Assembly (NCBI GenBank): GCA_016212275.1
Contig: JACRGR010000062.1
Coordinates: 1-29,521, forward strand
DNA length: 29,521 bases
Direction of reading: 5' to 3'
DNA from: Nitrospinota bacterium
Lineage (GTDB): Bacteria; Nitrospinota_A; UBA7883; JACRGQ01
Positions 2,774-24,134 of this stretch are shown here, piece after piece. The translations under genes and the position numbers were made by a program. Each line of letters opens with the position of its first letter. Position 1 is the stretch's first letter. Under the pieces are notes generated by a model. It saw only the letters and a program-made list of their open reading frames with translations, was not told where the DNA came from and made no database searches.

Positions 2774-2810
2774 CAACGCTTCCCGCTTACCTCAAACGCA
2801 AATAAAAAAA

Positions 2811-2834
2811 CCCCTCTCTGGCGCGAGGGGTTTT
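2811..2834. terminator. rho-independent terminator, bidirectional (A-run / CCCCTC-loop-GAGGGG / T-run)
   Basis: aaaaaaaCCCCTCtctggcgcgaGAGGGGtttt lies immediately after asd. The A-tract on the left lets it also terminate minus-strand transcription coming from the Ehr-like operon side. Confidence 0.7.
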
Positions 2835-2884
2835 AAAGAGGAGGTTTGGAAAAAACGGGAATCTGGCGCTTCCCGCGTGTAACC

Positions 2885-3097
2885 TTAGATCATCGTTCCC
2901 ATCCTTCGCACGATCGTCCACACCTGCATGACCAGCGGCACATGCGGCAGAACCGTTCCCGCTTTCAGGCCGACCCTTATGTATCCCTTTATCGCCCGTT
3001 TGAGGCTCCGCCGCACTGGCCGCATCTCGACCAGCCGCTCCGAGCCGGGAAACTTCGGGAGTATCAGTATCGAGCTGTTTTCCGTTGGTCTCATCAT
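2885..3097 (-). CDS. hypothetical small basic protein (70 aa), candidate only
   Basis: ORF MMRPTENSSILILPKFPGSERLVEMRPVRRSLKRAIKGYIRVGLKAGTVLPHVPLVMQVWTIVRRMGTMI. AGGGA sits 4 nt upstream of the ATG. Third-codon-position GC is about 79%, which is coding-like. It lies between the Ehr-like operon and the bidirectional terminator. No recognisable family. Confidence 0.25.
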   Translation of the reverse strand: MMRPTENSSILILPKFPGSERLVEMRPVRRSLKRAIKGYIRVGLKAGTVLPHVPLVMQVWTIVRRMGTMI

Positions 3098-3545
3098 TCA
3101 ATCCCTTTTTTGCGGCGGCAAGCCTTGGTGGCATGGTCCGTTGCGCGTTTTTTCATCCGCCGAGGCAACACTTATCGGGGCCGGATGTGGTGGATCGTGC
3201 CCGGTGCCATACGCTTATACCAACGCTTGCCGCATTTTCTCCCCAAGCTTTGTTTCTAAATCAAACCGCTTGCCAGCACCCAAAGTGCCGTCGCGGAAAT
3301 CGCGGCAAACAGGTCCGCCATGATCTCCCACATGTCCAATGCTATCGTTTTCGTCTTCATGCCCAGACATAAAGCATCAGCCGTGCCACACCCCTACCCT
3401 GCTGTTTTTAAGGGTCTTACGCACCTCTATAGGCCAAATGCGGTTATAGAAAAGATAATCCCCGTATGAATTTGTAAACGTGCTTATCCTGTGTTTTTTG
3501 GCAAACCAAAGAGGACGCAGAGAAAGAAAGCCGGAAATGGGCGCT

Positions 3546-4076
3546 CTACTTCCCTATCGAGAGGCGGCGCGCGCCGACCGCTTCTAATATCCCCGAAAGC
3601 AGGACGGACGGCGAAGGGGGACAGCCGTGGATGTAAGCGTCCACCGGGATGACGTTCGCCACGCCGCCCAACGAAGCGTAACTTTTTCCGAAAATACCGC
3701 CGTTGTAGCCGCAGTCCCCCACCGCCACCACCAGCTTGGGGGGCGGCATTGCGTCATAGGTGCGTTTGAGGGCGATCGCCATATTCACGGAGACCGGGCC
3801 GGTGACCAGCAACATGTCGGCAAACCGCGGCGAGGCGGTGAACGTGATGCCGAACCGCTCGCAGTTGTAGATGGAGTTGTTCAGCGCGTGTATCTCCAAT
3901 TCGCAGGCGTTGCACGAACCGGCGTCCACCTGGCGAATCGTCAGGCTCCCGGCGAACACCCGCTTCACCGATTCCTCCAGCCGCGCCCCCACCAATTCGA
4001 TCTTCGCCTCTTCTTCCGGCGGCAAAGGCTCGGTGACGATGCCGGTGCGGAATATCTGGCGCAGTATCCTTAACAT
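3546..4076 (-). CDS. NuoB/HycG-like [4Fe-4S] small subunit of an Ehr-type (hydrogenase-related) membrane complex
   Basis: 176 aa. VDAGSCNACELEI ... NCERFGITFTASPRFADMLLVTGPV ... VGDCGYNGGIF ... VIPVDAYIHGCPPSP aligns with group-4 hydrogenase small subunits and NuoB. Four Cys are available for one FeS cluster. RBS GAGAGGAA precedes the ATG. Confidence 0.85.
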   Translation of the reverse strand: MLRILRQIFRTGIVTEPLPPEEEAKIELVGARLEESVKRVFAGSLTIRQVDAGSCNACELEIHALNNSIYNCERFGITFTASPRFADMLLVTGPVSVNMAIALKRTYDAMPPPKLVVAVGDCGYNGGIFGKSYASLGGVANVIPVDAYIHGCPPSPSVLLSGILEAVGARRLSIGK

Positions 4077-4155: not shown

Positions 4156-5724
4156 TCACAGGTCGTTCCCCGAATAGGAATTGTTGAAACTCTTGTTCAC
4201 CAGCGGGAAATCCGGCACCATGTCCTGCTTTATGGACTGCTCCAGCGCCAGCCAGTTCACCGCCGATGGATCGCGCACCATGCACCGGTTGATGCCGCCG
4301 TCCGGCCCCGCCTGCACCCAGCAGAGTATTTCGCCGCGCCATCCTTCCACCGCGGAGAACCCCGCGCTCCCCGCCGCCGGAGCGGTCAGCGGCGCGGACG
4401 TTGCCCCTGTCGGCATTCCCGCAAGTATTTCAGCGATCAGCCGCGCGCCGTCGCGCACTTCCTCCACGCGCACCCATCCGCGGGAATGCGCGTCGCCCGA
4501 ATGCAGGACGTGCATTTTCGGCACCACCGTGTCGTACGGAGGGAAAGGATTTTGCAAACGCGCGTCCAGCCCCTGCCCGCTTGCCCGCGCCGCGATCCCC
4601 ACCACGCCGAGGTCGAACGCCGCCGATTGCGGAAAAACGCCGCTCCCGTACAGCCGGTCTTTCAGCGAGGCGTTGTCGTCGTATATCTCCATCAGCCGCT
4701 TGAATTCCGCTATCACGCCGTGGATCTCAAGGGCGATATCCTCCTTCGCCCCTTCCGCCAGGTCCACCGAAACGCCGCCCGGCACGATGGCGTCCATCAG
4801 CAACCGGTGGCCGAACAGCGTTTTGTTCATGCGGAGCATGGTTTCGCGCAAGTTCCAGAACTGGTAGTAGCCGAAGGCGAAGGCCACGTCGTTGCACAGC
4901 GCCGCAAGGTCCGCCAGGTGGTTCGCCATCCGCTCGCGCTCCAGCAAAAGCCCGCGCAACCACTGCGCGCGCGGCGGCACGGCGCACCCGGCGGCGGACT
5001 CCACCGCCATCGCATAAGCCAGCGCGTGGGCCACCGTGGTATCGCCCGAAACCCTGCCCGCCAGCTTTGCCGCGTCTTGCCACGAAAGGGACTCGAACCG
5101 TTTTTCAATGCCTTTGTGGACGTACCCCAGCCTTGCCTCCAAGTTCAGTATCTTTTCCCCCACCGCCTGAAAACGGAAATGCCCCGGCTCGATGATGCCG
5201 GCATGCACCGGCCCGACCGGGATCTCAAACACCCCTTCCCCCACGGCGGGGATCCACTGATACGTCCCTTCCACGCGGGGCATTGGCGCGGAAGCGTCGC
5301 ACGTCTTGCGCAGGGGATAGGCGTCTTGCGGCCAATCCTCGTGCTTTATCCACGGACGCGGGTCGGGATGCCCCTTAACCGTTAACCCCATCAGGCTCAT
5401 GATCTGCCGCTCGAAACGGAACGCCGCCAGATACTGGCCGGTGAGGGTGCCAAACGCGGGCTTTGCCGCGTCCAATGCCGCGGTGACGAGCAGATACTCG
5501 GTGCCAAGATTGTACGCCGCCCAAACGGCAAAGCCGTTCCCGAATGGCGTTTCATCCACGCCCCACTCGGCGGCAAGGCGCGCGCCAGCCGTTTTCATCA
5601 CCTCGGCGGAACGGACGAAATACGGGAGCGGCACCCGCAGAGCGGTGGCTCCCCCCTGCGGCAGTTCGATGATATTCGACTCGCGGAGATCGGCAACCAG
5701 CGCGCGGTGGAGTGTGTCGGTCAT
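4156..5724 (-). CDS. fused NuoC-NuoD / HycE-like large subunit lacking the NiFe-binding cysteines (Ehr-type large subunit)
   Basis: 522 aa. A NuoC-like N-terminal domain is joined to a NuoD/[NiFe]-hydrogenase-large-subunit-like domain (PVGPVHAGIIEPGHFRF, LEARLGYVHKGIEK). The N-terminal CxxC site is absent. The C-terminal site reads RCMVRDPSAVNW where hydrogenases have DPCxxCxxH. ATGA overlap with the upstream gene. Confidence 0.88.
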   Translation of the reverse strand: MTDTLHRALVADLRESNIIELPQGGATALRVPLPYFVRSAEVMKTAGARLAAEWGVDETPFGNGFAVWAAYNLGTEYLLVTAALDAAKPAFGTLTGQYLAAFRFERQIMSLMGLTVKGHPDPRPWIKHEDWPQDAYPLRKTCDASAPMPRVEGTYQWIPAVGEGVFEIPVGPVHAGIIEPGHFRFQAVGEKILNLEARLGYVHKGIEKRFESLSWQDAAKLAGRVSGDTTVAHALAYAMAVESAAGCAVPPRAQWLRGLLLERERMANHLADLAALCNDVAFAFGYYQFWNLRETMLRMNKTLFGHRLLMDAIVPGGVSVDLAEGAKEDIALEIHGVIAEFKRLMEIYDDNASLKDRLYGSGVFPQSAAFDLGVVGIAARASGQGLDARLQNPFPPYDTVVPKMHVLHSGDAHSRGWVRVEEVRDGARLIAEILAGMPTGATSAPLTAPAAGSAGFSAVEGWRGEILCWVQAGPDGGINRCMVRDPSAVNWLALEQSIKQDMVPDFPLVNKSFNNSYSGNDL

Positions 5725-7169
5725 TTCAGTATCTCCACGGCGTCCAAAAACCAGCGTTGCAGGAATTGCGGGAAATAAAGGCCCAACACCAGCACCAGCG
5801 CCATGTGCAAGAACACCGGCACATGCGCGGCGGATATTTCCTGGCGTACCTCCGGCGGATCGCCGAACACCATCGTCTGCATTTTGCGGAACAGCGCGGC
5901 AAAGGCCACTGCGATGCCAAGCATGAACAACGGGATGAGCATCGGCGCGTATTTCATGGTGGCGGTGAGGATGAGGAACTCGCTGGCGAACACGCCGAAG
6001 GGCGGCATGCCGGTGATGGCGATAACGCCGAACACCATCCCCCAGCCCACCAGCGGGTTCGCCTTTATCAGCCCCTTTATGTTCGCAATGTGCTGTGTGC
6101 CGCTGATCTGCGCGGCGTGCCCCACGGTGAAGAAGATGGAGGACTTGGTGAGGCTATGCACCAGCATGTGCAATAGGCCGCCGAACGTGGCTATCGGCCC
6201 GCCCAGCCCGAAAGCGAACGTGGCGATGCCCATGTGCTCTATGGACGAGTAGGCGAACATCCGCTTCACGTCCTTTTGCCGCAGAAGGGAGAACGAAGCC
6301 ACGATGAGGGAAAGGATGCCGAAACCCATCATGATCTCCCCCGCCCAATTGGAACCCATTGCCTTGTTCACCAGCACCTTGCACCGCACCAGCGCATACA
6401 ATGCGATGTTCAGCAAAAGGCCGGAGAGCACCGCCGATATGGGAGTGGGGCCTTCGCTGTGCGCGTCCGGGAGCCAGTTATGGAGCGGCACAAGCCCCAC
6501 CTTCGTGCCGTACCCCACCACGAAAAAGATGAAGGCCAGCGACAGGATGGTCGGTTCCAGACGGTCGCTTACCAGTATCAGGTTCGTCCACAACAGCCCT
6601 TGAGTCCCCTCCCCCACCACTTTTTCCGAGGCGAAGTAAAGGAGAATGGTGCCGAACAGCGCCAGCGCGATCCCCACGCCGCAAAGGATGAAATATTTCC
6701 ACGCGGCCTCCACGGACGACGGCGTGCGGTACAGCGACACGAGGAGCACGGTGGAAAGCGTGGCAAGCTCCATCGAGATCCACAGCACCCCCACGTTGTT
6801 GGTCAAAAGGGCCAACAGCATGGCGAAGATGAACATCTGGAACATGGCGTGGTAAAAGCGCATCCCCTTGTGCCCCACTTTGCCGTGCGCCCTCTCAAAT
6901 CGCATGTAGTTGCGGGAAAAGACGGCGGTGGTGGTGGAGACGAACGTGGTGAGCACCACCAGATAGACGTTGAAAGCGTCCACGAAGAAATAGTTGTCGG
7001 CGGCGGTCATTCCGCCTGAGTGGTACACGTCCACCGCGAGGAACAGGCTGATGACGAACGTGGCGAACGAGGCGAGAATGTTGATCTCGGCGGCTAAGCG
7101 GCGGTCGCCGATGATCGCCAGCATGACGGCGGAAAACAGCGACACCGTGAAGAGCGCGACGATGATCAT
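5721..7169 (-). CDS. NuoN/NuoM (MrpD)-like antiporter-type membrane subunit
   Basis: 483 aa from MIIVALFTV... and contains NWLPDAHSEGPTPISAVLSGLLLN. The 208-aa N-terminal extension in the ORF track is H/R/G-rich non-protein-like sequence. The ATG at 7169 overlaps the stop of the upstream gene. Confidence 0.85.
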   Translation of the reverse strand: MIIVALFTVSLFSAVMLAIIGDRRLAAEINILASFATFVISLFLAVDVYHSGGMTAADNYFFVDAFNVYLVVLTTFVSTTTAVFSRNYMRFERAHGKVGHKGMRFYHAMFQMFIFAMLLALLTNNVGVLWISMELATLSTVLLVSLYRTPSSVEAAWKYFILCGVGIALALFGTILLYFASEKVVGEGTQGLLWTNLILVSDRLEPTILSLAFIFFVVGYGTKVGLVPLHNWLPDAHSEGPTPISAVLSGLLLNIALYALVRCKVLVNKAMGSNWAGEIMMGFGILSLIVASFSLLRQKDVKRMFAYSSIEHMGIATFAFGLGGPIATFGGLLHMLVHSLTKSSIFFTVGHAAQISGTQHIANIKGLIKANPLVGWGMVFGVIAITGMPPFGVFASEFLILTATMKYAPMLIPLFMLGIAVAFAALFRKMQTMVFGDPPEVRQEISAAHVPVFLHMALVLVLGLYFPQFLQRWFLDAVEILK

Positions 7170-7837
7170 GCCCCCTCGTGCTCCTTGAGCTTTTCCATTT
7201 CCTTCAGGTCCAGGCTGTCGAACGTGGTGCGTATCTGGAAAATGAATATGCCGAATATGAACGCCGCGATGAGGATGTCCAGCGCCACGCCCAGCTCGAT
7301 GACCAGCGGCATCCCGTAGGTGGCGCTGGTGGCGGCGAAGAACAGGCCGTTCTCCAGCGCGAGGAACCCGATGATCTGCGTGACCGCCTTTTTGCGGGTG
7401 ATCATCATCAAAAAGCCGAGCAAAACCGTGGAGAGCGCCACCGCCAGCGTGGTGCGCGTGACCAGCGTGGAAAGCTCGCGGATGGGCGCCGTGAGGTGGT
7501 AGGAGAATATCACCAGCACGATGCCGATGAGCATGGTGGCCGGGATGTTCACCAGCGGCTCCACGTCGCGGTATATGTTCAGCCGGTTCACGAGGACATA
7601 GAGGATGTACGGGAGCACCACGACCTTGAGCGTGAGCGTGAGCGCGGCGGAAATGTACAGGTGGTTCATGCCCGCCGTGTATGCCACCAGCGCGGTGCTG
7701 GCGGAAAGGAACAGCCCCTGCCACGCGAATATACGCAATAGCCCGTAGATGCGCCGCTGGACCAGCAGGCCGAACGAGGTGAGCAGGATGCACGCCGCCA
7801 GCACGTTGATGATCTGAGCGGTGAACGTCATTTTCAT
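7166..7837 (-). CDS. HyfE / NuoK-like small membrane subunit
   Basis: 223 aa polytopic membrane protein with GFLALENGLFFAATSATYGMPLVIELGVALDIL, as in hydrogenase-4 component E and NuoK. A 1-nt gap separates it from the upstream NuoH-like gene. Confidence 0.8.
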   Translation of the reverse strand: MKMTFTAQIINVLAACILLTSFGLLVQRRIYGLLRIFAWQGLFLSASTALVAYTAGMNHLYISAALTLTLKVVVLPYILYVLVNRLNIYRDVEPLVNIPATMLIGIVLVIFSYHLTAPIRELSTLVTRTTLAVALSTVLLGFLMMITRKKAVTQIIGFLALENGLFFAATSATYGMPLVIELGVALDILIAAFIFGIFIFQIRTTFDSLDLKEMEKLKEHEGA

Positions 7838-7838
7838 C

Positions 7839-8789
7839 CTACATTTCCAGAATGAAATGGGAGAGCATCCCTAGAGTTGCGATAAGGAACGCGGTGCCCA
7901 AAAATTCGGGCACGCGGAAAATACGCATCTTCGCCAGCCCCGTTTCCGCCAGCACGATGCCCGCCGCCACCAGCGCCAGCTTGCCCGCCATGATGAGGAC
8001 CGCCAGCGGAATGTCCATCAGGTCGTCCCCCTGCGGTATGCCCCACGGCACGAACAGCGCCACCCCCAGGCTGGTGAAAATGAACAGCTTCATCATCCCC
8101 GCCCATTCCACCAGCGCGAGGTAGCGCCCGGAATATTCCAGTATCATCCCCTCGTGGATCATGGTCAGTTCAAGGTGCGTGACCGGGTTGTCCACCGGCA
8201 CGCGGCCCGTTTCCGCCAGCAGGGTGAGGACAAAGGCGATGGCGGCGAACACCATGGAGGGGCTAAGGAAAAAGTTCTGCTGGCCGATGAACCGCACCAT
8301 CTCGGAAAGTGAGGTGGTGTGGCCGAAAAGCGACACCGTGAAGGTGGTCATTAGCACCGCGGGTTCGGCCAGCGACGCGATCATCATCTCCCTGCTTGAA
8401 CCCATGCCGCCGAACGCCGTGCCCACATCCATCCCCGCCAGCGCGATGAAAAACCGCCCGATGGCGAATAGCGCGACCAGCGCGATAATGTCCGCCGTGG
8501 CCGACAGCGGCAGGTCCACCGATATGATCGGGATGATGGCCCCGGCCATCAGCACCGAACCGAACAACAAGTACGGCGTGAACCGGAACACCCACGAGGC
8601 GTTGTGGGCCAGCACGATGTCCTTCGAGAAAAGCTTGATGAGGTTGCGGTACGGCTGAAGCACCCCCGGCGAGGTGCGCCCCTGCGTCCAGCATTTCAGC
8701 GCCCGCACCCACCCGGCCAACAGGGGCGCGGCGAATAGCACCAGCGCGATCTGGCACGCCTCTATCAGCAGGGGAAAAGCCTCCCTCAC
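7839..8789 (-). CDS. NuoH / HycD-like membrane subunit
   Basis: 317 aa starting at a GTG that overlaps the upstream stop (GTGA). ETGRVPVDNPVTHLELTMIHEGMILEYSGRYLAL matches the NuoH/HycD E.GR.PFD..E.ESEL..G...EYSG motif. The N-terminal extension in the ORF track was rejected. Confidence 0.85.
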   Translation of the reverse strand: MREAFPLLIEACQIALVLFAAPLLAGWVRALKCWTQGRTSPGVLQPYRNLIKLFSKDIVLAHNASWVFRFTPYLLFGSVLMAGAIIPIISVDLPLSATADIIALVALFAIGRFFIALAGMDVGTAFGGMGSSREMMIASLAEPAVLMTTFTVSLFGHTTSLSEMVRFIGQQNFFLSPSMVFAAIAFVLTLLAETGRVPVDNPVTHLELTMIHEGMILEYSGRYLALVEWAGMMKLFIFTSLGVALFVPWGIPQGDDLMDIPLAVLIMAGKLALVAAGIVLAETGLAKMRIFRVPEFLGTAFLIATLGMLSHFILEM

Positions 8790-10834
8790 AGCGCCACCAG
8801 CAGGAGGAAGAGGATAGTGAAGAAGGAATACGCCAGGTAGATGTGTATCCTTCCGTGTTGCAGACGCGCGGTGTGTTTGGCGAGGCGGAACGCGAGGTCC
8901 GCCACCGGGCGGTAGAACCAGCCCCAAGCGCGGTCGCGCACGCGAACGCTATAGTTCACTTTGGCGGGAAATTCCGCGGGACGTCCATCCGGCAGGCCGG
9001 GCCGCACCCGCTCCTTGATGTGGAACAGGTAGCCGAATATCAGCCGCGGCGGCATGGAGAAGGCGGTGGAAGTGTACTGCATGGTGGAAGTGATCTTCTC
9101 GAACCCGCAGTCCCACAGCGGCACGCGGTGGATGGCGCTTTTTTTCGAGCGGAGCGTGAGGAACACCACCAGCAAAACGGAGGCGATCCCCAGCAAAACC
9201 ATCGGCGCGGCGTACGAGGCGCGCTGGGCCGATACCGGCGTAAGCCACAGCCAGCCAACCTCCCCCGCGGATCTCGCGATGGTCTCCCCCGCCAGTTGCG
9301 ACGAGAGATTGCCCATCCACGCGATGACGACGGTGGGGAAAACGCCGAGCAACAGGCACGCGGTCGCCGCGATCATCATTCCCGCGCGCATCGAGGGGGT
9401 GGCGTCGTGCGCGGTTGCACATGCTTCGCTCCGGCAATGGCCGAGGAAGGTGACGCCGAACGCCTTGACGAAACAGGAGGCCGAGAGCGCGGCCACCAAC
9501 GCCAAAAGCGCCGCCCCCAGCGGGATGACGAGGTTCAAGTGCTGGCTGGGTAACGATGGCGACATGAGGAACGCCTGGAACGTGAGCCATTCGGACACGA
9601 ACCCGTTGAACGGGGGAAGCGCCGATATGGACAGGCACCCCACCAGGAACAGCGGCGCGGTCCATTTCATTTTGTGTATCAGCCCGCCCATCTTTTCCAT
9701 GTTCCGCACGCCGGTGGCATGGAGCACCGCGCCCGCCCCCATGAACAAAAGCCCCTTGAACATGGCGTGGTTGAGCGTGTGGTACAACGCGGCGGTGATG
9801 GCCAGCGCCGCCATCAGCGGCTGGTGGAACGAAAGGAATATCATCCCCAGCCCCAGCCCCACGAGGATGATGCCTATGTTCTCCACGGACGAGTAAGCCA
9901 ATAACCGCTTGAGGTCATTTTCCAATAATGCGGCCAGCACGCCCAGGATGGCGGATGCCAGCCCCACGGCCAGCACCAGTTCCCCCCACCACAGTTGCGG
10001 CGTGTGCAGAATGTCGAACGTGAAGCGCACGATGCCGTAAATGGCGGTCTTCAGCATCGCGCCGCTCATCAGGGCGGACACATTGCTCGGCGCGGCGGGG
10101 TGCGCTTCCGGAAGCCAGACATGGAGCGGGACGATGCCCGCTTTCGCGCCGAACCCCAAAAAGGCGAGCACAAAAGCGGTGCTCGCCCACGCCGGGGGAA
10201 GGCTTGCGCCGCGCATCGCGTCGAAGGTATATCCGTGAAACGTGTCGAACCCGGCGGCGAACCCCGCCATCACGCCGAACGCCAGGAGGATCGCCACCGC
10301 ACCGATGTGCGCCACCACCAAATAAATGTAAGCGGCACGGCGGTTCTCCACCACGCCATCTTCATACAGGACGAGGAAATAGGAAGCGGCGGCCATCAGT
10401 TCCCACGAGATGAGGAAAAAATAGGCGTCGTCCGATACGAGCACCAAAAGCATCCCCGCGAGAAACAGCGGGTAAAAGATGGCGAGGTGGGTGACGGATC
10501 TTTTGCCGATGAACCCGGCGATATATCCCCGTGAGTAAATCGAAACGCAAAACGCCAAGAGCGAAACAACGGTTATGAAAAACCCCGAAAGCGGGTCGAG
10601 CCGGAGGTGGAACGGCAGGTCGGGAAGCCCGACGGGAAGAATAAGCGTTTCCGCCTCCCCGCCCGCCACTGCCAGTATCCCCGCGAAAAGGGAAAACAGG
10701 GAAGCGGCTGAAAAAACCGGGAAAATGATTGAAACAATAAGGTGTTGGCGCCGGTGGAACAATGGCACTATGGCCACGGACGCGATAAGGATGAATATGG
10801 CGGTTAAGACTAGGCTACTTAAAGAACCTTCCAT
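8786..10834 (-). CDS. NuoL / HyfB-like long antiporter-type membrane subunit
   Basis: 682 aa. VWLPEAHPAAPSNVSALMSGAMLKTAIYGIVRF and a long C-terminal extension as in HyfB/NuoL. First gene of the minus-strand operon. Confidence 0.88.
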   Translation of the reverse strand: MEGSLSSLVLTAIFILIASVAIVPLFHRRQHLIVSIIFPVFSAASLFSLFAGILAVAGGEAETLILPVGLPDLPFHLRLDPLSGFFITVVSLLAFCVSIYSRGYIAGFIGKRSVTHLAIFYPLFLAGMLLVLVSDDAYFFLISWELMAAASYFLVLYEDGVVENRRAAYIYLVVAHIGAVAILLAFGVMAGFAAGFDTFHGYTFDAMRGASLPPAWASTAFVLAFLGFGAKAGIVPLHVWLPEAHPAAPSNVSALMSGAMLKTAIYGIVRFTFDILHTPQLWWGELVLAVGLASAILGVLAALLENDLKRLLAYSSVENIGIILVGLGLGMIFLSFHQPLMAALAITAALYHTLNHAMFKGLLFMGAGAVLHATGVRNMEKMGGLIHKMKWTAPLFLVGCLSISALPPFNGFVSEWLTFQAFLMSPSLPSQHLNLVIPLGAALLALVAALSASCFVKAFGVTFLGHCRSEACATAHDATPSMRAGMMIAATACLLLGVFPTVVIAWMGNLSSQLAGETIARSAGEVGWLWLTPVSAQRASYAAPMVLLGIASVLLVVFLTLRSKKSAIHRVPLWDCGFEKITSTMQYTSTAFSMPPRLIFGYLFHIKERVRPGLPDGRPAEFPAKVNYSVRVRDRAWGWFYRPVADLAFRLAKHTARLQHGRIHIYLAYSFFTILFLLLVAL

Positions 10835-11015
10835 TGTTGCGATTTCTAATGTTCCCCGTATGCCGAATCAACTATCAGGCAAAAATGTATATGCAACCGT
10901 TCAGTCCGGAATATTGAAACCCACTACCATTGTGGAAAACATAGCACGCGCGTTTCAAGCATGTCAAACTTTGCCGGAAAACATGCCTCATTCTCTTTCA
11001 AAAACGGTATTCGGT

Positions 11016-11096: not shown

Positions 11097-13478
11097 ATGC
11101 AACATAAGATCAACGCAAACGGGACTCCGTACAGTTCCATGACGGACCACATCGCCAGAGGGGCGCGCACCTCGCTGGGAAGGCTGGTCATCGCATTTTC
11201 ACTTGTCCTGATAGTTGTGTTCAGCGCCGGTTACTACTATCTGAACGAGCGCAACTTCAGGATAATCGAGGAAGCGGACAAAGAGCGCGACCTCAAAAAC
11301 AGCGAGATACTGCTACTCACCGAGACCGTCCGCCTGTTGAATGGCGCCTTGCTTCCGCTCCACGATTCGCTAATGCACGCTTCGGCCTACGCGAGCCGCC
11401 AAATTGGCGATACCGCGGCGATGGCGGGGCTTGAAAAAGAACTGCGGGAACTTGCCGAAGTAAAGGAAAGACTGGATGGGGTATTCGCCCGCTTAAGCGG
11501 CGAAGACGATTTTATTAAAAACCTTCGGAGGGAAATGCTGGAATGCCTTCCGCTTATTGACGGGGTTATAACGAATGTAAACCAGTCCAATGCCCTTGCG
11601 CGGTTAAAGGGGACCGACCGGGAACGGACCCGCCTCATCCGTTCCGCTTTCGAAACATCGGAGCATCTTCATGCAAAGGTGGAGGCCATAACCGCCCGGA
11701 TAGACGGCCGCATCGTGGTCTTGAAACGCGAATTCGAAATTGCGGGAAAAAAGGATGCCGCCGCCCAGTGGGGCGTGATCGTGAAAATGCGGTGGGCGGT
11801 CGCGCTGGCTTTGGCGATCATCGTGCTCTTGTGCGTGGTGGAGCTGATGGCGATAGGCCGGATACGCCGGGATGAGGCGCGACTGAAAGAGGAAGAGGAA
11901 AAATACCACAAACTCATCGAAACGGCGGGCGACGCCATCGTGGTGGCGGACGCGGCGACGGGAGTTATCCTGGACGTAAACCGCGAGGCCGAAACGCTGT
12001 TCCACAAGCGGCGGGAAACGCTGGTGGGCATGGCGCAGTCCGACCTTTATCCGCCGGACAACCGCGAGTTTTACGCGGCGGCGTTCGCCCGCGTGATCAA
12101 GAGCGGGGAGATACTCCGCAACCTGATGGTGCGCCGGGAAGATGGCACAACCATCCCGGTGGACGTGCGGACAAGCCTGATGACGTTCGGAGACCGGATC
12201 ATCGTCCAGGGGATATTCCGCGACATGAGTTACTATGTGGATTCCGAACATAAAATGCAGGAGCAGGCCGATTTCCTGCAACGCTTGATGGACGCTATCC
12301 CGAACCCGGTTTTTTTCAAGGACGCAAAGGGAGTGTACTTGGGGTGCAACCGCACCTTCGAAGAGTGGTTCGGCATCAAAGCGGAAAACATAGTGGGGAA
12401 AGGGGTATATGACATCAGCCCCGCGGAATTCGCCGCCAAATACGAGGAAAAAGACAACGACCTGTTCGCCCATCCGCGCGAACCGCAGGTGTACGAGAGC
12501 CTGGTGCAGACCAAACAGAATGGATTGCGGAACGTGATGTTCTATAAATCGTGCTTCTTCAATGCGTCCGGCGAGGTGGCGGGGCTTGTCGGAGTGGTGC
12601 TGGACATCACCGAGCGCAAGGCTATTGAGCGGGAGCAATTGAACCTCGTCCGGCAGATGGTGGAAGCGCTCGACGAGGTGAAGGAAGCGAACCGGCTGAA
12701 GACCGAATTTTTGGCCAACATGTCCCACGAACTCCGCACGCCGCTTACCTCCATCTTGGGATACTCGCGGATCGCCGGTGAAAAATGGCAAGAACTGTCG
12801 GATGGGGTGAAACTGCTGGCCGCCGGGGATCGAGCGGGGCAAGACGGCATGCACGGTATCGGCATGGAACTGGTGAACCAGGCGCACGAAGCCAACGAGT
12901 TCAACGCCATCATCGTGCGCGAGGCCGAGCAACTGTTCAGGATGATCAGCGACATTTTGGACCTCAGCCAACTCGAGGCGGGGCACTTGAAGATCATGAA
13001 CGGCGTGGTGTCCGCCGACATGGTTTTGCACGCCGTGGTGGAGAGCCAGTCGCCTATCGCGCGCGAGAAGAACCTGAAGATGTCCACCAACCGCGACCGG
13101 CTTTCATCCGCGGACGTGATGTTTTTGGGGGACCAGATGCGCCTCGAACAAGTGCTTAAGAGCATCGTGAACAACGCGGTCAAATACAGCGATCACGGCG
13201 CAGTGTCGCTGGAGGCAATGCGGGAAAATGAAAACGTGCTGTTCCGGGTGACGGATCAGGGAATCGGCATCGCCCAAAAAGACTTCGAGACTATTTTCGG
13301 AAGCTTCCGGCAGTTGGACGGCTCGTCCACCCGGAGCCACGGCGGCGTGGGGCTGGGACTCACGCTCGCCAAACGGCTGACCGAGGCGATGGGCGGCTCC
13401 ATACAGGTGGAATCGGCCCTCGGCAAGGGTTCGGTCTTCACCGTGGCGCTTCCGTACCGCCCCGTCACCGGCGCCTGA
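11097..13478 (+). CDS. sensor histidine kinase with two TM helices, a coiled-coil extracytoplasmic region, two PAS domains, HisKA and HATPase_c
   Basis: 793 aa. TM segments LVIAFSLVLIVVFSAGYYYL and WAVALALAIIVLLCVVELMAI. H-box NMSHELRTPLTSILGY. G-boxes DQGIGIAQKD and GGVGLGLTLAKRLTEAMGGSIQVES. Two PAS-like segments precede the kinase core. Confidence 0.9.
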   Translation: MQHKINANGTPYSSMTDHIARGARTSLGRLVIAFSLVLIVVFSAGYYYLNERNFRIIEEADKERDLKNSEILLLTETVRLLNGALLPLHDSLMHASAYASRQIGDTAAMAGLEKELRELAEVKERLDGVFARLSGEDDFIKNLRREMLECLPLIDGVITNVNQSNALARLKGTDRERTRLIRSAFETSEHLHAKVEAITARIDGRIVVLKREFEIAGKKDAAAQWGVIVKMRWAVALALAIIVLLCVVELMAIGRIRRDEARLKEEEEKYHKLIETAGDAIVVADAATGVILDVNREAETLFHKRRETLVGMAQSDLYPPDNREFYAAAFARVIKSGEILRNLMVRREDGTTIPVDVRTSLMTFGDRIIVQGIFRDMSYYVDSEHKMQEQADFLQRLMDAIPNPVFFKDAKGVYLGCNRTFEEWFGIKAENIVGKGVYDISPAEFAAKYEEKDNDLFAHPREPQVYESLVQTKQNGLRNVMFYKSCFFNASGEVAGLVGVVLDITERKAIEREQLNLVRQMVEALDEVKEANRLKTEFLANMSHELRTPLTSILGYSRIAGEKWQELSDGVKLLAAGDRAGQDGMHGIGMELVNQAHEANEFNAIIVREAEQLFRMISDILDLSQLEAGHLKIMNGVVSADMVLHAVVESQSPIAREKNLKMSTNRDRLSSADVMFLGDQMRLEQVLKSIVNNAVKYSDHGAVSLEAMRENENVLFRVTDQGIGIAQKDFETIFGSFRQLDGSSTRSHGGVGLGLTLAKRLTEAMGGSIQVESALGKGSVFTVALPYRPVTGA

Positions 13479-15364: not shown

Positions 15365-16237
15365 ATGGCGATAGGTAATAAACTGGTCAGCGCGGTCATC
15401 CTCACATGGAACCGCAAGGACGACCTGAAAGAAACACTGGAACGGCTCCGGGAACAGCCCTACTCCCCGATTGAAATTATCGTGGTGGACAACGCCTCCA
15501 CCGACGGCACCGACGGAATGGTCCGCTCGTCGTTCCCGGAGGTGGTGTACCTTCCACAGAAAGAGAACCGGGGCATCGCCGGGTATAACGCGGGCTTCAT
15601 GGCGGCGCGCGGCGATTATATCGTGGCGCTGGATTCCGATTCGCACCCCGAACCGGAAGCCATGGGGCGGATGGTAACACTGTTTGAAAAAAATCCAACG
15701 GCGGGGATCGTGGCGTTCGACGTACACGCCTCGCCCGGCGGAAAACCGATACCGGAGGGCGCGCCAGTGGCGGAGGTGGCGGGATACCACGGCGCGGGCG
15801 TGGGATTCCGCGCGGAAGTATTCCAAAAGGCGGGGTACTGGTACGAGCCGTTTTTCCTCTACTTCAACGAGATGGACCACGCCCTTCGCGCGCTCATGGC
15901 GGGATACCGCATCATCACCTCCCCAGCCGTGCGCGCGGTACACCGGTCGTCGCCGGTGGCGCGCCCTTCCGAACGGGGAGCGTATTTTTATGCGCGTAAC
16001 GCGCTGTGGGTGATTTGGCGGCACTACCCGGCGCGGGAAATGTTTTCGGCCACCGCGCAATTCGTCTGGCTGGCGGTATCGGAAAGCCTGTACCAGCGCA
16101 CCGGGGTGTATTTGCGGGCGGTGCGGGATGCGTTCGCGGCGGCACCCGGAGTTGTGCGCGGGCGGAATCCACTTCCGCCGAACATTTTCGAAAAGGTCCG
16201 CATCCCCCTCCACCTCGTATTCACGAGGTTCGAATGA
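15365..16237 (+). CDS. family 2 glycosyltransferase (GT-A fold)
   Basis: 290 aa. VSAVILTWNRKDDLKETLERL...IIVVDNASTDGT...YIVALDSDS is the classic GT2 N-terminal motif set. Confidence 0.85.
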   Translation: MAIGNKLVSAVILTWNRKDDLKETLERLREQPYSPIEIIVVDNASTDGTDGMVRSSFPEVVYLPQKENRGIAGYNAGFMAARGDYIVALDSDSHPEPEAMGRMVTLFEKNPTAGIVAFDVHASPGGKPIPEGAPVAEVAGYHGAGVGFRAEVFQKAGYWYEPFFLYFNEMDHALRALMAGYRIITSPAVRAVHRSSPVARPSERGAYFYARNALWVIWRHYPAREMFSATAQFVWLAVSESLYQRTGVYLRAVRDAFAAAPGVVRGRNPLPPNIFEKVRIPLHLVFTRFE

Positions 16238-16758
16238 AAACACTGGTCATCCGCTCGGCATCACTTGAACGGTTCGACGCGCTGGCCCAAAAGCTCGGCC
16301 TGAACGCCGGATACACCGATCCGGTGGAAGTGCTCACCCATCCGCATGCAACGGAAGCGTTAAGAGCGAATTACCCTACGGTCACTGTGGTTGAATATCC
16401 GTATACGGGTGGGTTTTGCCGCCATGCCGTAAAACAGATGGTGCGGGCGGGTTCACTTGCCAAAGATCATTCGGAGATAATCGTTTTGTGCGGCAACGTT
16501 TCAGGCGGCGGCCACTTCAATGCCATCCGGGCCGCGCACGAAGCGGGGAGCAACGTGTTCCTCTTCAACACGGCGGGGGAACTGGTTCCGGCGCCGCCCG
16601 CCCAAGTTCGGCGCGAGGCGACTCGGAGATTACTCTTATTTCCCGCCGCGGTATTTGGTACAATTCTCGTGCTTGCTTTGGGGGTACCGTGGCTCGCGGC
16701 CTGCCTGATTTTGGGCAAGGCCGTCAGCGGGAAAAATAGTAGTGAAAAAACAGGTTAA
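16234..16758 (+). CDS. hypothetical protein with a C-terminal TM anchor
   Basis: 174 aa from an ATG that overlaps the GT2 stop (ATGA): MKTLVIRSASLERFDALAQKLGL...IIVLCGNVSGGGHFNAIRAAHEAGSNVFLF, with a C-terminal hydrophobic helix LLLFPAAVFGTILVLALGVPWLAACLILG. No family recognised. Overlaps the next gene by 17 nt. Confidence 0.6.
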   Translation: MKTLVIRSASLERFDALAQKLGLNAGYTDPVEVLTHPHATEALRANYPTVTVVEYPYTGGFCRHAVKQMVRAGSLAKDHSEIIVLCGNVSGGGHFNAIRAAHEAGSNVFLFNTAGELVPAPPAQVRREATRRLLLFPAAVFGTILVLALGVPWLAACLILGKAVSGKNSSEKTG

Positions 16759-17722
16759 TGTCCTTATCACCGCCGCGTCGCGGCGCGTGGCGCTTATCCG
16801 CGGTTTCGCCGAAGGGCTGAAAAAGGCGGGGGCCGCGGGCCGTGTGGTGGTTACCGATTCCGATCCGCTTTCGCCGGGACTCTTTTTCTGTTCCGGGCAC
16901 CACATCGTCCCGCTCGCCACATCCCCCGACTACATCCCCGCGATCAAGGAGATATGCAAATCGGAGGACATCTCCCTGCTCATCCCCACGATTGACGAGG
17001 AGTTGCCGATATTCGGCAAGCATAAGGAAGAGTTCCGGCTGATGGGGGTGCGCATCCCCGTGTCGGACGAAGAGATAGGGAATGTATGCAACGACAAATA
17101 CAAGACCTACCTCTTCTTCAAGGAGAACGGCCTGCCGTTCGCCGAAACATGGTTGCCGGACGAGGTGCGGAAGCTCAAGCCGGAACTGCCGCTCTTCATC
17201 AAACCGCGGTTCGGGCGCGGCGCGGTGCAGGCCTATCCGATATTCAAAAAAAAGGAACTCGATTTCTTCCTCGACTATGTGCAGGACCCGATAGTGCAAA
17301 GGTTCCTGCCCGGCAAAGAATACACGGTGGACGTGCTGTGCGATTTCGAGGGGCGGGTGATCTCGGTGGTGCCCCGGCACCGGATGGTGATCCGCTCCGG
17401 CGTGTGCGACCGCGGCATGACGGAAAAAAATCAAAAGCTGATGGCCCTCGCCGAAGAGGCCGCAAAGAAACTGCGCCTCGTGGGGGCGGCCAACCTGCAG
17501 TGCAAGGTGGATGGCGACAACATCCAGTTCTTCGAAGTGAACGCCCGCTTCTCCGGCGCGATCCAGCTGACCATCAACGCGGGGGCCGATTTTCCCCACA
17601 TGATGCTCCAGATGCTCAACGGCGGCGTGAAACCCTGCATCGGCGAGTTCGAAGACAAGCTGACGATGGTGAGTTACGAGGAAAGCCTGTACCGCCACCC
17701 CGCGAACGGGCGGAAAAACTGA
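16742..17722 (+). CDS. ATP-grasp domain protein (carbamoyl-phosphate-synthase-like ligase fold)
   Basis: 326 aa. PLFIKPRFGRGAVQAYPI...EYTVDVLCDFEGRVISVVPRHRM...ANLQCKVDGDNIQFFEVNARFSG matches ATP-grasp fold hallmarks. GTG start. Confidence 0.8.
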   Translation: MKKQVNVLITAASRRVALIRGFAEGLKKAGAAGRVVVTDSDPLSPGLFFCSGHHIVPLATSPDYIPAIKEICKSEDISLLIPTIDEELPIFGKHKEEFRLMGVRIPVSDEEIGNVCNDKYKTYLFFKENGLPFAETWLPDEVRKLKPELPLFIKPRFGRGAVQAYPIFKKKELDFFLDYVQDPIVQRFLPGKEYTVDVLCDFEGRVISVVPRHRMVIRSGVCDRGMTEKNQKLMALAEEAAKKLRLVGAANLQCKVDGDNIQFFEVNARFSGAIQLTINAGADFPHMMLQMLNGGVKPCIGEFEDKLTMVSYEESLYRHPANGRKN

Positions 17723-17759
17723 AGCTATCCGCGCTTTTTCCGATAAGAAGCTAACGGTC

Positions 17760-18821
17760 ATGGCAAAAGTGTACAAAACCGCGGTGGTGGGATGCGGCCG
17801 GATAGCGTCCCTTCTGGAAGAAGACCCCCTGCGCGAAAAACCGGCCACCCACGCAGGCGCTCTCGCCGCGCACCCGGCCACAAAGATCGCCGCCGCGTGC
17901 GACATAAACGCCGAGCGGCTGGAACGCTTCGGCAGGAAGTGGGGCGTCCCTTCCCCCTATTGGTACCGCGACCACCGCGAAATGCTCCGCCGCGCACAGC
18001 CGGAGATCGTGAGCATCGCCACTTGGACGGACAGCCATTGCGAGATAGTTTTGGAGGCCGCCAAGACCCCTTCCGTCAAGGGCATCTATTGCGAAAAACC
18101 GATCGCCTCCAGCATGTCGGAGGCGGACCGGATGATAGCGGCGTGCAAAAAACGCGGCATCCCGCTGGTTATAGGGCACGAGCGGCGCTTCGACGCGAAC
18201 TTCGTGCGCGTGAAGGAGATCATCGAGAAGGGAACGCTGGGGAAGCTGAAAACCATTTTCGCGCAGGCTCTCTCCTTGCCCGTCCCCGCCTTGCCCCGCA
18301 AAAAATATGTGGGAGGCACCCTGTTGCACGACGGCACCCACCTGATGGACCTGGCGCTATATTTCGGCGGCCCGGCAAAATGGGTGATCGGCTTCAACAA
18401 GCGCCCCTACGGCAAGGAGAACATCGAGACCACCGCTGGCGGCATCATCAAGATGGAAAACGACGTGACCGTGTTCGTGGAAGGCGGCGGCGAGCGGGAA
18501 TACTTCAAGTTCGACCTCGATCTCCAATTCGAGCGCGGCAGGATACTTATCGGCAATTCCGGCATCCACGCTTTCGCGGCGGGGAAAAGCCGTCACTATA
18601 CGGGGTTCCGCGAACTGCACCCGGTGCCGTTCCCCGCGCCGAAAACGCGGGTGAACTCGCTGGTGGGGGGCGTGGCGGAAGTCGTGCGCGCCATACGCAC
18701 CGGCAAGGAGCCGGTATCCAACGGGCAGGACGCGCGCGACGCGCTGGCGCTCATCATGGCGGTGTATGAATCGGCGGGCGCCGACGGCAAAAAGATACGC
18801 ATCGGGAACGGCCTAGGGTGA
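17760..18821 (+). CDS. Gfo/Idh/MocA-family NAD(P)-dependent oxidoreductase
   Basis: 353 aa. N-terminal Rossmann motif TAVVGCGRIAS, then EKPIASSMSEADRMIAACKKRGIPLVIGHERRF typical of the family. Confidence 0.88.
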   Translation: MAKVYKTAVVGCGRIASLLEEDPLREKPATHAGALAAHPATKIAAACDINAERLERFGRKWGVPSPYWYRDHREMLRRAQPEIVSIATWTDSHCEIVLEAAKTPSVKGIYCEKPIASSMSEADRMIAACKKRGIPLVIGHERRFDANFVRVKEIIEKGTLGKLKTIFAQALSLPVPALPRKKYVGGTLLHDGTHLMDLALYFGGPAKWVIGFNKRPYGKENIETTAGGIIKMENDVTVFVEGGGEREYFKFDLDLQFERGRILIGNSGIHAFAAGKSRHYTGFRELHPVPFPAPKTRVNSLVGGVAEVVRAIRTGKEPVSNGQDARDALALIMAVYESAGADGKKIRIGNGLG

Positions 18822-19558
18822 GCGCCAACCCGGTCGTTATCATCCAGGCGCGGATGGGTTCCACCCGCCTGCCCGGCAAAACGATGATGGAAATTGCCGG
18901 TCGCCGACTTATTGATTGGGTATTGGATGGCGCGCGGGCAATAAAGAACGCGCGCGGTATCATCGTGGCGATTCCCGAAAACCCGGAGGATGATCCGCTT
19001 GAGGCCTATCTAAATGAGCGCGGCGTTTCCTGCTTCCGCGGCTCGTCCGAAGATGTACTGGACCGCTTTTACCGCGCCGCGCTGGAAGCAAAAGCGGACC
19101 CGGTTATCCGTCTGTGCGCCGATAGTCCCCTCCCCTCGGCGGAATATATGGACATGATGATAGAAACACACCTGAAGACCGGCGCGGACCACACGCATAA
19201 CGACGGGCTGTTCCCGCTCGGCTCGTATGGCGAGGTGGTCTCGTTCACTACACTGGAACGGATGTGGCGCGAGGCGAAGACGGTGCATTGCCGCGAACAT
19301 GTGACGCCGTTCATCCACGAAAACCCGCAGTCCTTCCGCGTGAACCGTGTTCAGGCTCCCGCATGGATGCAAAGGGACTACCGGCTGACGATAGACACGG
19401 CGAAGGACAGGGAGATGATGGAAACGCTCTTCCGCGCGATGATGGATCAGGGCCTTCCGGTGAATTTCACGAACGCGATGGCGGTGCTGGAAGCCCGGCC
19501 GGAGATCGCGGCCATCAATTCGACGGTGCCGCAAAAAGACTGGCGCAAGGGGGAGTGA
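18818..19558 (+). CDS. sugar cytidylyltransferase (KdsB/NeuA/SpsF-like GT-A fold)
   Basis: 246 aa. VVIIQARMGSTRLPGKTMMEIAGRRLIDWV matches the ARxxSxRxPxK motif of CMP-sugar synthetases. GTG start overlapping the upstream stop. Confidence 0.85.
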   Translation: MSANPVVIIQARMGSTRLPGKTMMEIAGRRLIDWVLDGARAIKNARGIIVAIPENPEDDPLEAYLNERGVSCFRGSSEDVLDRFYRAALEAKADPVIRLCADSPLPSAEYMDMMIETHLKTGADHTHNDGLFPLGSYGEVVSFTTLERMWREAKTVHCREHVTPFIHENPQSFRVNRVQAPAWMQRDYRLTIDTAKDREMMETLFRAMMDQGLPVNFTNAMAVLEARPEIAAINSTVPQKDWRKGE

Positions 19559-19567
19559 GCGGAACGG

Positions 19568-20029
19568 TTACAAAATATCCTTGAAGCGGCCCTGCGATGC
19601 GCGCAGGCGCAGGCTGATGTTCTTCGCCAACCCTTTGAGCACCTTAATCCCGGTCTTCGGCTGTTCGTCCAATATCTTGTCGAACTTGTATTTGGTCAAT
19701 ATCAGTATCTCGCACGGCGTGGCGGTCCGCACCGTGGCGGAACGCTCGTAGTCGTCCAATAGCGCCATTTCCCCCACCGACGCGCCCGGGCCGAAATTGG
19801 CGATGATCCGGTGCTTTTTTCCGTCCCCCGTCAGGCTCACCTCCACCATGCCGTCGATCACGAAGAACAGGTAGTCCCCCATCTCCCCCTCGCTGAACAG
19901 CACGGTTCCCTCGTCCACCTGCCGCAGGCTTAAATACTGCGTGAACATCCGAATCTCGTCATCGCTGAACGAGTCGAAGAACGGCAGACCCTTGACCACA
20001 TTGATGACGTTTTCCCGCGTGCGTTCCAT
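19568..20029 (-). CDS. stand-alone cyclic-nucleotide-binding (CAP_ED) domain protein
   Basis: 153 aa from an ATG preceded by AAAGGGG: FGPGASVGEMALLDDYERSATVRTATPCEIL carries the GE.AL...RSA phosphate-binding cassette. No output domain. An upstream TTG/ATG at 20047 is a possible alternative start. Confidence 0.85.
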   Translation of the reverse strand: MERTRENVINVVKGLPFFDSFSDDEIRMFTQYLSLRQVDEGTVLFSEGEMGDYLFFVIDGMVEVSLTGDGKKHRIIANFGPGASVGEMALLDDYERSATVRTATPCEILILTKYKFDKILDEQPKTGIKVLKGLAKNISLRLRASQGRFKDIL

Positions 20030-20043
20030 ACAATTCGCCCCTT

Positions 20044-24098: not shown

Positions 24099-24134
24099 CC
24101 AGTATGTGCATCATTGTTTTTTTCGGCGCTGGCG

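Follow-up and report, generated by a model that had tools for sequence, protein, structure and literature searches.

The Ehr complexes are defined by a large subunit that is akin to those of the group 4 hydrogenases and has no ligands for a NiFe centre (PMC6349859, PMC10284858, PMC10432482, PMC13194489). According to passages of PMC6349859, PMC10284858, and PMC13194489 that cite the older work, Coppi (2005) described them first, in Geobacter, and Marreiros (2013) extended the concept to other organisms. The Hyq "endo-hydrogenase" of Azorhizobium caulinodans, encoded by hyqRBCEFGI, is of the same kind: HyqG is without both CxxC motifs (PMC3357923). Loss of CxxC from Ehr/Hyq large subunits has accordingly been in the literature since 2005–2013, as has the idea that such a subunit might for this reason react with quinone, put forward for Hyq in PMC3357923 and for Ehr in the two older studies as cited in those passages. 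The locus described here is an ordinary member of this family. It lies on a 29,521-nt stretch from a Nitrospinae metagenome-assembled genome (MAG), contig JACRGR010000062.1, positions 1 to 29,521, referred to below as the window.

Six intact genes, all on the (-) strand, are arranged in the order HyfB-HyfC-HyfE-HyfF-L-S, L and S being the large and small subunits. The large subunit has none of the four Ni-Fe cysteines, the small one has four cluster cysteines, and the six-gene cassette is that of hyqBCEFGI and ehrABCDLS. Membership of the family follows from two comparisons with a plasmid operon of Rhizobium ruizarguesonis (R. leguminosarum being among the species reported to carry hyq; PMC3357923). 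The order there is the same, HTH-hyfB-nuoH-hyfE-hyfF-"nuoC"-nuoB, and the large subunit it encodes shares 42% identity with the query L over 508 residues aligned end to end, with the same motifs at the former metal site (GRTSGDSTVAY and NKSFNCSYSGHDL). L is the EhrL/HyqG subunit of a self-contained, six-subunit, complex-I-like membrane machine that descends from group 4f [NiFe]-hydrogenases by loss of four cysteines and that, on balance, probably works as a redox-coupled ion translocator, not as a hydrogenase. Alignments and gene models establish what the complex is and how it is built: the Ni-Fe ligands are gone, the Fe-S ligands and the Glu/Lys residues of the channels are still there, and the pocket and a loop carrying Glu179 are strongly constrained.

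The large subunit and its former Ni-Fe site

The gene for L (EhrL/HyqG) occupies 4156–5724 on the (-) strand and encodes a NuoC-NuoD fusion of 522 aa that has the fold of a hydrogenase large subunit and lacks the Ni-Fe ligands. NCBI already lists a protein of the same sequence (100% identity) from a Nitrospinae MAG, where it is named "NADH-quinone oxidoreductase subunit C". An earlier annotation made from the letters alone (the sequence-only reading) had picked out this open reading frame (ORF), which is real, and had quoted two peptides that are indeed present, EIPVGPVHAGIIEPGHFRF at residues 167–185 and RCMVRDPSAVNWLALEQS at 480–497; its strand and motif positions were not given correctly. 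Pfam matches are to Complex1_30kDa (PF00329, E 3.2e-11), which marks a NuoC (30 kDa)-like N-terminal domain at residues 49–145 (5290–5580, (-) strand), to Complex1_49kDa, and, weakly, to NiFeSe_Hases (28.8 bits against a cut-off of 25.8).

In a phmmer search of all sequences in the Protein Data Bank (PDB), the closest solved relative of L is HycE of E. coli (7z0s_E, E 2.8e-63), with Nqo4 at E 9e-35. The NuoD models give scores far below their cut-offs (NF004739, 198.1 bits vs 360; TIGR01962, 162.1 vs 459). An AlphaFold2 monomer model, for which a 30-sequence alignment was the input, has a mean predicted local distance difference test (pLDDT) of 87 and a predicted template modelling score (pTM) of 0.91. 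Its confidence is low only at the beta1-beta2 loop, at residues 200–204, and in the last five residues, parts that in relatives pack onto the small and membrane subunits. Foldseek comparison of the model with the PDB again puts HycE first (7z0s_E; template modelling score, TM, 0.94; rmsd 2.5 Å), followed by E. coli NuoCD at a TM of about 0.88. Homology to the group 4 [NiFe]-hydrogenases is thus present in both sequence and modelled fold, and by both L is nearer to hydrogenases than to NuoD/Nqo4. The likeness to NuoD/Nqo4 proposed earlier therefore holds insofar as L is nickel-free, but not in its sequence and fold, which are nearer HycE, nor in its NuoD score, nor in its partner S, which has CxxC and not the tandem CC.

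The positions of the lost ligands were fixed by alignment with HycE and with relatives that have all four cysteines. The L1 equivalent is RVSGDTTVAH at residues 224–233 (5026–5055, (-) strand), which pairs with RVCGICGFAH of HycE in the phmmer alignment; the cysteines are replaced by Ser226 and Thr229, and an invariant Asp228 is specific to the family. The L2 equivalent, NKSFNNSYSGNDL (residues 510–522; 4159–4197, (-) strand), is the extreme C-terminus of the protein, where SFNNSYSGNDL (512–522) pairs with SLDPCYSCTDR of HycE and the replacements are Asp to Asn514, Cys to Ser516, Cys to Gly519, and the terminal Arg to Leu522. The same register is found against the four-Cys relatives, with "ERxCGxCxxSH" and "NKSFELCYxCxDR" standing against RVSGDTTVAH and NKSFNNSYSGNDL (115 representatives of 50%-identity clusters), and it agrees in an alignment of 23 close homologues. 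Neither the L1 motif RxCGxCxxxH nor the L2 motif [DE]PCxxCxx[HR], each with two Ni-Fe cysteines, occurs in L, which has Ser226 and Thr229 in the one and NNSYSGNDL (514–522), with Ser516 and Gly519, in the other.

The two peptides in the sequence-only reading had been assigned to these motifs and belong elsewhere. The supposed L1 region, EIPVGPVHAGIIEPGHFRF, is the beta1-beta2 loop (EIPVGPVHAG). This loop, VGPVHAGIIEPGHFRF (residues 170–185; 5170–5217, (-) strand), is of the hydrogenase type, carries the conserved Glu179, and aligns with IGPLHVTSDEPGHFRL of HycE and FGPIHPGLEEPEKF of MbhL; it is common to the four-Cys group 4f-like relatives. The statement that DPS replaces DPCxxC fails in the same way. 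RDPS (484–487) is another motif, its DPS (485–487; 4264–4272, (-) strand) being separately conserved some 30 residues upstream of L2 and paired with "RAAT" in HycE and "RAPS" in Nqo4, so that the true replacements of the four cysteines are Ser226, Thr229, Ser516, and Gly519.

The conclusion drawn from those peptides nevertheless stands. L holds five cysteines (142, 247, 277, 468, and 481), with no CxxC among them, and none is conserved among 83 non-redundant related loci from many phyla, the set used throughout for conservation and neighbourhoods. No conserved cluster of Cys or His takes the place of the lost ligands in these sequences, and His233 varies to Tyr or Phe. With Ser, Thr, Ser, and Gly at all four ligand positions, L cannot bind a canonical Ni-Fe centre. 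There is also no C-terminal extension for an endopeptidase to remove, since the stop codon directly follows residue 522.

At least 97% conservation in the 83 loci is found for R224, G227, D228, N510, K511, S512, N514, Y517, G519, and D521, for the whole beta1-beta2 loop (V170–F185), and for D485-P486-S487. For S226 and S516, conservation is 90% or more in a 30-sequence alignment that spans 33–57% identity, and the replacement residues are conserved over representatives of 50%-identity clusters as well. Judged from these alignments, the residues that replaced the Ni-Fe cysteines are under strong purifying selection.

This bears on whether the cysteines are merely hidden by a sequencing or frameshift error, or L is a degenerating pseudo-hydrogenase. 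The window does come from a MAG, and one paper assumes that Ehr in Geobacter KN400 is non-functional and under relaxed selection (PMC13194489). An error was rejected on translation in three frames, which gives no CxxC in any frame around either site or within 150 nt past the stop, and the frame runs intact to the family-consensus C-terminus, L ending exactly at the ...SYSGxDL stop. At least 80 genomes share these Cys-less motifs, as do dozens of clusters formed at 50% identity. As for decay, all six genes are intact and appear translationally coupled, and the proteins have been detected in Geobacter (PMC7894505). Because the replacement residues are nearly invariant, neither error nor decay accounts for them, and we give these explanations almost no credence.

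The sequence-only reading had further suggested a pocket for quinone or another organic substrate, to be compared with the His and Tyr of the complex I quinone site. At the sequence level that comparison is unfavourable: Nqo4 Tyr87 (in the context RMDYLH) falls on the invariant Gly227, and His38 on Ile178, beside Glu179. Asp139 of Nqo4 does fall on a conserved residue, Asp279, and MbhL also has Asp there. With the complex I Tyr and His absent, the inference of a quinone pocket is unsupported, and as far as the alignment goes the quinone chemistry specific to complex I is not conserved in L, which may have some other quinone site.

The small subunit, the membrane subunits, and the operon

The small subunit S (EhrS/HyqI; 3546–4076, (-) strand) is a NuoB/HycG-like protein of 176 aa (Pfam Oxidored_q6, E 1.6e-28). 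Its motifs SCNAC (54–58), GDCGYNGG (120–127), and HGCPP (150–154) contain the four [4Fe-4S] ligands, C55 (3912–3914), C58 (3903–3905), C122 (3711–3713), and C152 (3621–3623), all on the (-) strand. In the nearest solved structures, HycG (E 2.9e-32) and MbhJ (E 5.3e-30), all four align with cluster ligands, in agreement with the earlier claim that S keeps the proximal cluster, and they are 99–100% conserved among 81–82 sequences. The first pair is a hydrogenase-type CxxC (C55-x-x-C58), gapped against the tandem CC of NDUFS7 that holds cluster N2 in complex I. S is the most conserved subunit, with 73–83% identity among the top matches.

The first gene of the cassette encodes a HyfB/HycC-like, antiporter-type membrane subunit (EhrA/HyqB) of 682 aa (8786–10834, (-) strand). 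It matches the NCBIfam model "hydrogenase 4 subunit B" at 812.6 bits (cut-off 667) and both Proton_antipo_M and Proton_antipo_N of Pfam; its nearest solved structure is HycC (7z0s_C, E 3.5e-59). Among 64 sequences, 63 of them orthologues and one the query, E145, K231, and E415 never vary. The HyfC/HycD/NuoH-like subunit (EhrB/HyqC) follows at 7839–8789 on the (-) strand, with 316 aa, a Pfam NADHdh match (E 4.1e-40), and many invariant Glu, Asp, and Arg residues. Next is a small HyfE-like membrane subunit (EhrC/HyqE) of 223 aa (7166–7837, (-) strand), which matches the NCBIfam model "hydrogenase 4 membrane subunit" at E 1.8e-26, below its cut-off; it is found at this position in 76 of the 83 loci and has invariant K71, E162, N163, and E181. 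The last of the four is a HyfF-like, antiporter-type subunit (EhrD/HyqF) of 482 aa (5721–7169, (-) strand; NCBIfam "hydrogenase 4 subunit F", 754 bits vs a cut-off of 543), for which the antiporter-like subunits of MBS and MBH are the nearest solved structures. Its E134, K223, and E397 are invariant and align with E144, K234, and E407 of E. coli NuoM. Asn254 (6408–6410) of this subunit sits at the position of NuoM K265, the central lysine of transmembrane helix 8 (TM8), which is Lys also in MbhH and MbsH; the asparagine is kept in 70 of 73 sequences (72 orthologues and the query).

Start and stop codons overlap by 4 nt at three junctions, HyfB/HyfC (GTGA, 8786–8789), HyfE/HyfF (ATGA, 7166–7169), and HyfF/L (ATGA, 5721–5724). 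HyfC starts with GTG, and its gap to HyfE is a single nucleotide (TAG-G-ATG). The overlaps suggest tight translational coupling of the first five genes. Only the L/S junction has a spacer, 79 nt with its own ribosome binding site. Upstream of the first gene is a candidate sigma-70-like promoter (10938–10967, (-) strand; TTGACA-18-TATGTT with an extended TG, 10 of 12 consensus matches); this is a pattern match, from a consensus scan that gave three sites where 0.9 were expected.

How the complex may work

The complex is taken to be a redox-coupled translocator still, and no longer a hydrogenase, since conservation is highest in those parts that, in related complexes, link chemistry to pumping. 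In the mechanism proposed here, the lone [4Fe-4S] cluster of S would exchange electrons, with no subunit in between, with a low-potential carrier in solution, such as a ferredoxin or flavodoxin. Direct docking of the carrier is suggested by the lack of a HycF/NuoI-type subunit. No CxxCxxCxxxCP motif of a HycF/EchF/MbhN/NuoI-type 2x[4Fe-4S] subunit was found in any frame of the 29.5-kb window in a six-frame scan, and only three of the 83 related loci have one within 3 kb of the cassette, one of these being an out-of-frame artefact. The cluster would then give electrons to, or take them from, an acceptor in a polar pocket at the interface of L, S, and HyfC, lined by Ser226, Asp228, Thr229, Asn514, Ser516, Tyr517, and Asp521. 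Membrane quinone is the leading candidate for this acceptor. Protons would enter the pocket by way of the conserved hydrogenase-type Glu179 loop, and the change in charge would pass along the acidic residues of HyfC to HyfE, HyfF, and HyfB, which would move H+ or Na+. The process could also run in reverse.

Several points weigh against this mechanism. The donor and acceptor named in it are guesses. The quinone ligands of complex I are absent, Gly227 and Ile178/Glu179 standing in for Tyr87 and His38, and the HyfC-like subunit is much nearer to HycD (7z0s_D, E 4.7e-43) than to NuoH (ND1 only about 2e-9). The asparagine at the TM8 lysine position may mean that the HyfF-like channel, or its proton path, is atypical. 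Ehr-type complexes occur in Riflemargulisbacteria, in which no quinone biosynthesis pathway was found (PMC6349859), and bacteria of the CPR also carry Ehr-type large subunits (PMC7304191); both occurrences argue against quinone as a universal partner. Finally, genetic work in Azorhizobium ascribes H2 uptake and evolution to Hyq (PMC2650096, PMC3357923), which at face value contradicts the view that these complexes are not hydrogenases.

Some of the same evidence applies to a stricter version, a complex-I-like quinone reductase in which an N2-like cluster reduces quinone in a NuoD-type pocket and so drives proton pumping. NuoB-, NuoCD-, and NuoH-like subunits are all present, L superposes on NuoCD, Asp279 pairs with Asp139 of Nqo4, and many hosts are quinone-using aerobes (Burkholderia, Cupriavidus, Gallionella, Methylococcales); a role for quinone was, as noted, suggested for Hyq. 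The details fit less well. In addition to the missing Tyr87 and His38, the low NuoD score, the CxxC of S, the HycD-like character of HyfC, and the Riflemargulisbacteria, the beta1-beta2 loop is identical to that of the four-Cys hydrogenases. The window also has no other nuo genes, neither NuoA, NuoI, NuoJ/K, nor NuoEFG or another input module for NADH or ferredoxin. A strict quinone reductase is possible but doubtful.

A different alternative dispenses with redox chemistry as the driving force. The complex might be a cation/proton antiporter like Mrp, independent of redox or only gated by it, with L and S as a structural or regulatory remnant capping it and the cluster serving as a structural element or redox sensor. 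The HyfB- and HyfF-like subunits do resemble MrpA/MrpD (7qru_A, E 5e-43; 7qru_D, E 1e-22 for HyfF and 1.5e-28 for HyfB), and the hosts have very different energy metabolisms. No electron-input subunit or conserved redox partner is encoded nearby: when all ORFs of 100 aa or longer lying up to 6 kb from the cassette were clustered over the 83 loci, no conserved neighbour emerged, the largest cluster being sensor histidine kinases (18 of 83 loci, on varying sides and strands) and all others covering at most nine loci. A pure antiporter, however, would have no use for NuoB/NuoD-type subunits, which Mrp lacks; here S is the most conserved subunit of all, and conservation peaks at the sites of hydrogenase catalysis and coupling (the Glu179 loop, the former Ni-Fe pocket, and the four cysteines of S). 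We consider an antiporter of this kind unlikely.

The least probable functional reading is the one the Azorhizobium phenotypes would support, that of a genuine hydrogenase with a Cys-free H2 site, the "endo-hydrogenase" or H2:quinone oxidoreductase described for Hyq. In its favour, hyq mutants are reported to be affected in H2 uptake and evolution in vivo (PMC2650096, PMC3357923), and the window cassette is like the Rhizobium hyq operon in order, in L identity, and in motifs. Against it, none of the four positions offers a thiolate, nor does a conserved Cys/His cluster take their place, and no hyp genes or specific endopeptidase were found in the 29.5-kb window. No in vitro activity is on record, and even the authors of the Hyq work describe a Ni-Fe site as "uncertain, if not unlikely" (PMC3357923). 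Ehr is elsewhere treated as unable to use H2 (PMC10284858, PMC13194489, PMC7304191). A hydrogenase is very improbable here.

A bolder form of the redox-coupled translocator may also be mentioned, although it seems rather improbable. The near-invariant Cys-free pocket (Ser226, Asp228, Asn514, Tyr517, and Asp521), the Glu179 relay, and the lone cluster could together make up a new kind of catalytic or coupling site, and the complex a minimal "bare adaptor" of the complex I superfamily that links a directly docking carrier (ferredoxin or flavodoxin) to quinone or another acceptor and runs in reverse in aerobic lithoautotrophs and diazotrophs. If so, Nitrospinae, Nitrospira, Gallionella, and rhizobia would use proton-motive force to make reduced ferredoxin, and the H2 phenotypes in Azorhizobium would be explained by electron supply to nitrogenase.

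Surroundings, distribution, and relation to known systems

On one side the cassette is flanked by leuD, leuB, and asd, and on the other by a divergent double-PAS sensor histidine kinase of 793 aa (11097–13478, (+) strand), an M3 peptidase, and genes of the LPS/Kdo type. The Rhizobium operons and about five other loci begin instead with a small ArsR-type HTH regulator (HyqR), and regulation of Ehr cassettes seems to be lineage-specific. Some 400 nt downstream of the S gene (3135–3545, and likewise 2787–3134) have no convincing ORF and no Pfam or Rfam match, and an Rfam scan of the whole window gave no non-coding RNA. The nearest terminator-like hairpins (2807–2834 and 2855–2876, (-) strand) are about 670 nt off, beside the convergent asd gene. 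Farther away, 19568–22098 on the (-) strand encodes a 684-aa protein that consists almost wholly of HEAT/PBS-lyase repeats and then a 159-aa cyclic-nucleotide-binding protein, with a 4-base overlap of frames, unrelated to the cassette. The envelope-sugar genes at 15365–19558 and 24114–25406 ((+) strand), which take up a large share of the remaining window, include a family-2 glycosyltransferase, an ATP-grasp enzyme, a GFO/IDH/MocA oxidoreductase, a CMP-sugar cytidylyltransferase, and a Kdo transferase, and nothing related to hydrogenases.

The family itself is widespread. A HMMER search of 1.84 billion cluster representatives gave 7042 matches at E<1e-3 and 1028 at E<1e-30, and when each species was represented by a single genome, a relative turned up in at least 597 of them. 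Hosts listed include Nitrospirota, Nitrospira, Gallionella, Thiobacillus, Methylococcales, Acidithiobacillus, Mariprofundus, Burkholderia, Acidobacteria, and Rokubacteria, and relatives are also found on plasmids or chromids of Rhizobium, Sinorhizobium, Azospirillum, Cupriavidus, and Burkholderia. The order B-C-E-F-L-S is kept in nearly all of the 83 loci, and it is seen in Dissulfurispira and in MAG loci. Five loci (L043, L045, L058, L074, and L085), from Chloroflexia, Rokubacteria, Binatia, and one unclassified MAG, have S-B-C-E-F-L.

In a neighbour-joining tree of 109 representatives, which is rough and without support values, the query falls inside a clade of 90 leaves, 81 of them with no Cys at any of the four sites; the four-Cys sequences are outside it, and the one exception is a three-Cys sequence. 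On these alignments the pattern fits one ancient loss of the cysteines followed by long maintenance. Some representatives keep part of the set: P0270, P0275, P0282, P0343, and P0387 have a single Cys at the first L1 position, P0350, P0372, and P0379 read "SYCG", and P0306 (CCCA) and P0298 (CCCD) have three. These may be intermediates between the four-Cys group 4f sequences and the Cys-less Ehr ones, or reversions.

Names of the orthologues (P0001, P0037, P0437–P0441; locus L086) are inconsistent: "NADH-quinone oxidoreductase subunit C", "hydrogenase large subunit", "Ni,Fe-hydrogenase III large subunit", and even "hydrogenase expression protein HypE". Automated labels of this sort ("hydrogenase 4", "NuoC", "HypE") mislead and are unfit for inferring H2 metabolism in MAGs. 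A literature search on Nitrospinae with hyf or formate hydrogenlyase (FHL) found nothing relevant. A single instance such as this one adds little; the interest lies in the Ehr/Hyq family, which spans at least about 600 species genomes, among them those of nitrifiers, iron and sulfur oxidisers, rhizobia, Burkholderia, and Geobacter.

Ehr of Geobacter sulfurreducens (GSU0739–0745; EhrA, B, C, D, L, and S) has the same set of subunits as the window cassette: a NuoL-like, a NuoH-like, and a HyfE-like subunit, a second antiporter-like one, a large subunit without the NiFe cysteines, and a small Fe-S subunit (PMC7894505, PMC13194489, PMC6349859). This comparison is by subunit description, not by residues. 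EhrA is duplicated in Geobacter (EhrA-1 and EhrA-2) and single in the window, whose host is a Nitrospinae MAG. Geobacter produces the full set of Ehr subunits, and in larger amounts on formate (PMC7894505). The Rv0081–0087 cluster of Mycobacterium tuberculosis has also been discussed in Ehr terms (PMC6728331).

In Hyq the gene order, B-C-E-F-G-I, is identical to that of the window, and HyqG is a NuoC-NuoD fusion like L. The cysteines reported for HyqI are Cys55, Cys58, Cys112, and Cys152 (PMC3357923); C55, C58, and C152 match in the query, where the third ligand is C122. At two positions where HyqG of alphaproteobacteria has conserved cysteines, Cys491 and Cys497, L has Val509 and Asn515. Rhizobial hyq operons start with the small HTH regulator, whereas the window has the divergent PAS histidine kinase, and the claim of H2 activity is one made for Azorhizobium.

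Among sequences with all four cysteines, the nearest are those of group 4f, such as the "Ehr with four Cys" of Desulfotomaculum ruminis (PMC3569383). They share with L the loop VGPxHAGIIEPGHFRF, the C-terminal pattern NKSF...Y..DL/R, overall length, and the NuoC fusion, and in the HMMER search they are interleaved with Cys-less representatives at 35–42% identity. They differ in keeping ERxCGxCxxSH and ELCYxCxDR, where L has its S/T/S/G replacements together with Asp228, Asn514, and Leu522. E. coli FHL (Hyc), considered here together with hydrogenase-4 (Hyf), supplies in PDB 7z0s the closest solved counterparts of B, C, L, and S, four subunits out of six (HycC, HycD, HycE, and HycG). FHL has a Ni-Fe site, the ferredoxin subunits HycF and HycB, FdhF, and Hyp/HycI maturation, none of which has a counterpart in the window.

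The Q-module of complex I (NuoB, NuoCD, and NuoH; Nqo6, Nqo4, and Nqo8) differs from the query in Tyr87/His38, in the tandem CC, and in the company of NuoI, NuoA, NuoJ, and NuoEFG. Ehr/Hyq is the simplest known relative of complex I, and learning what it does would inform the question of how hydrogenases gave rise to complex I, and might also inform that of how aerobes generate low-potential reductant. Like the query, the Q-module sets a nickel-free NuoD-type subunit beside a single [4Fe-4S] cluster, with a TM of about 0.88 between the folds, on a NuoH-like base with antiporter-like pumps.

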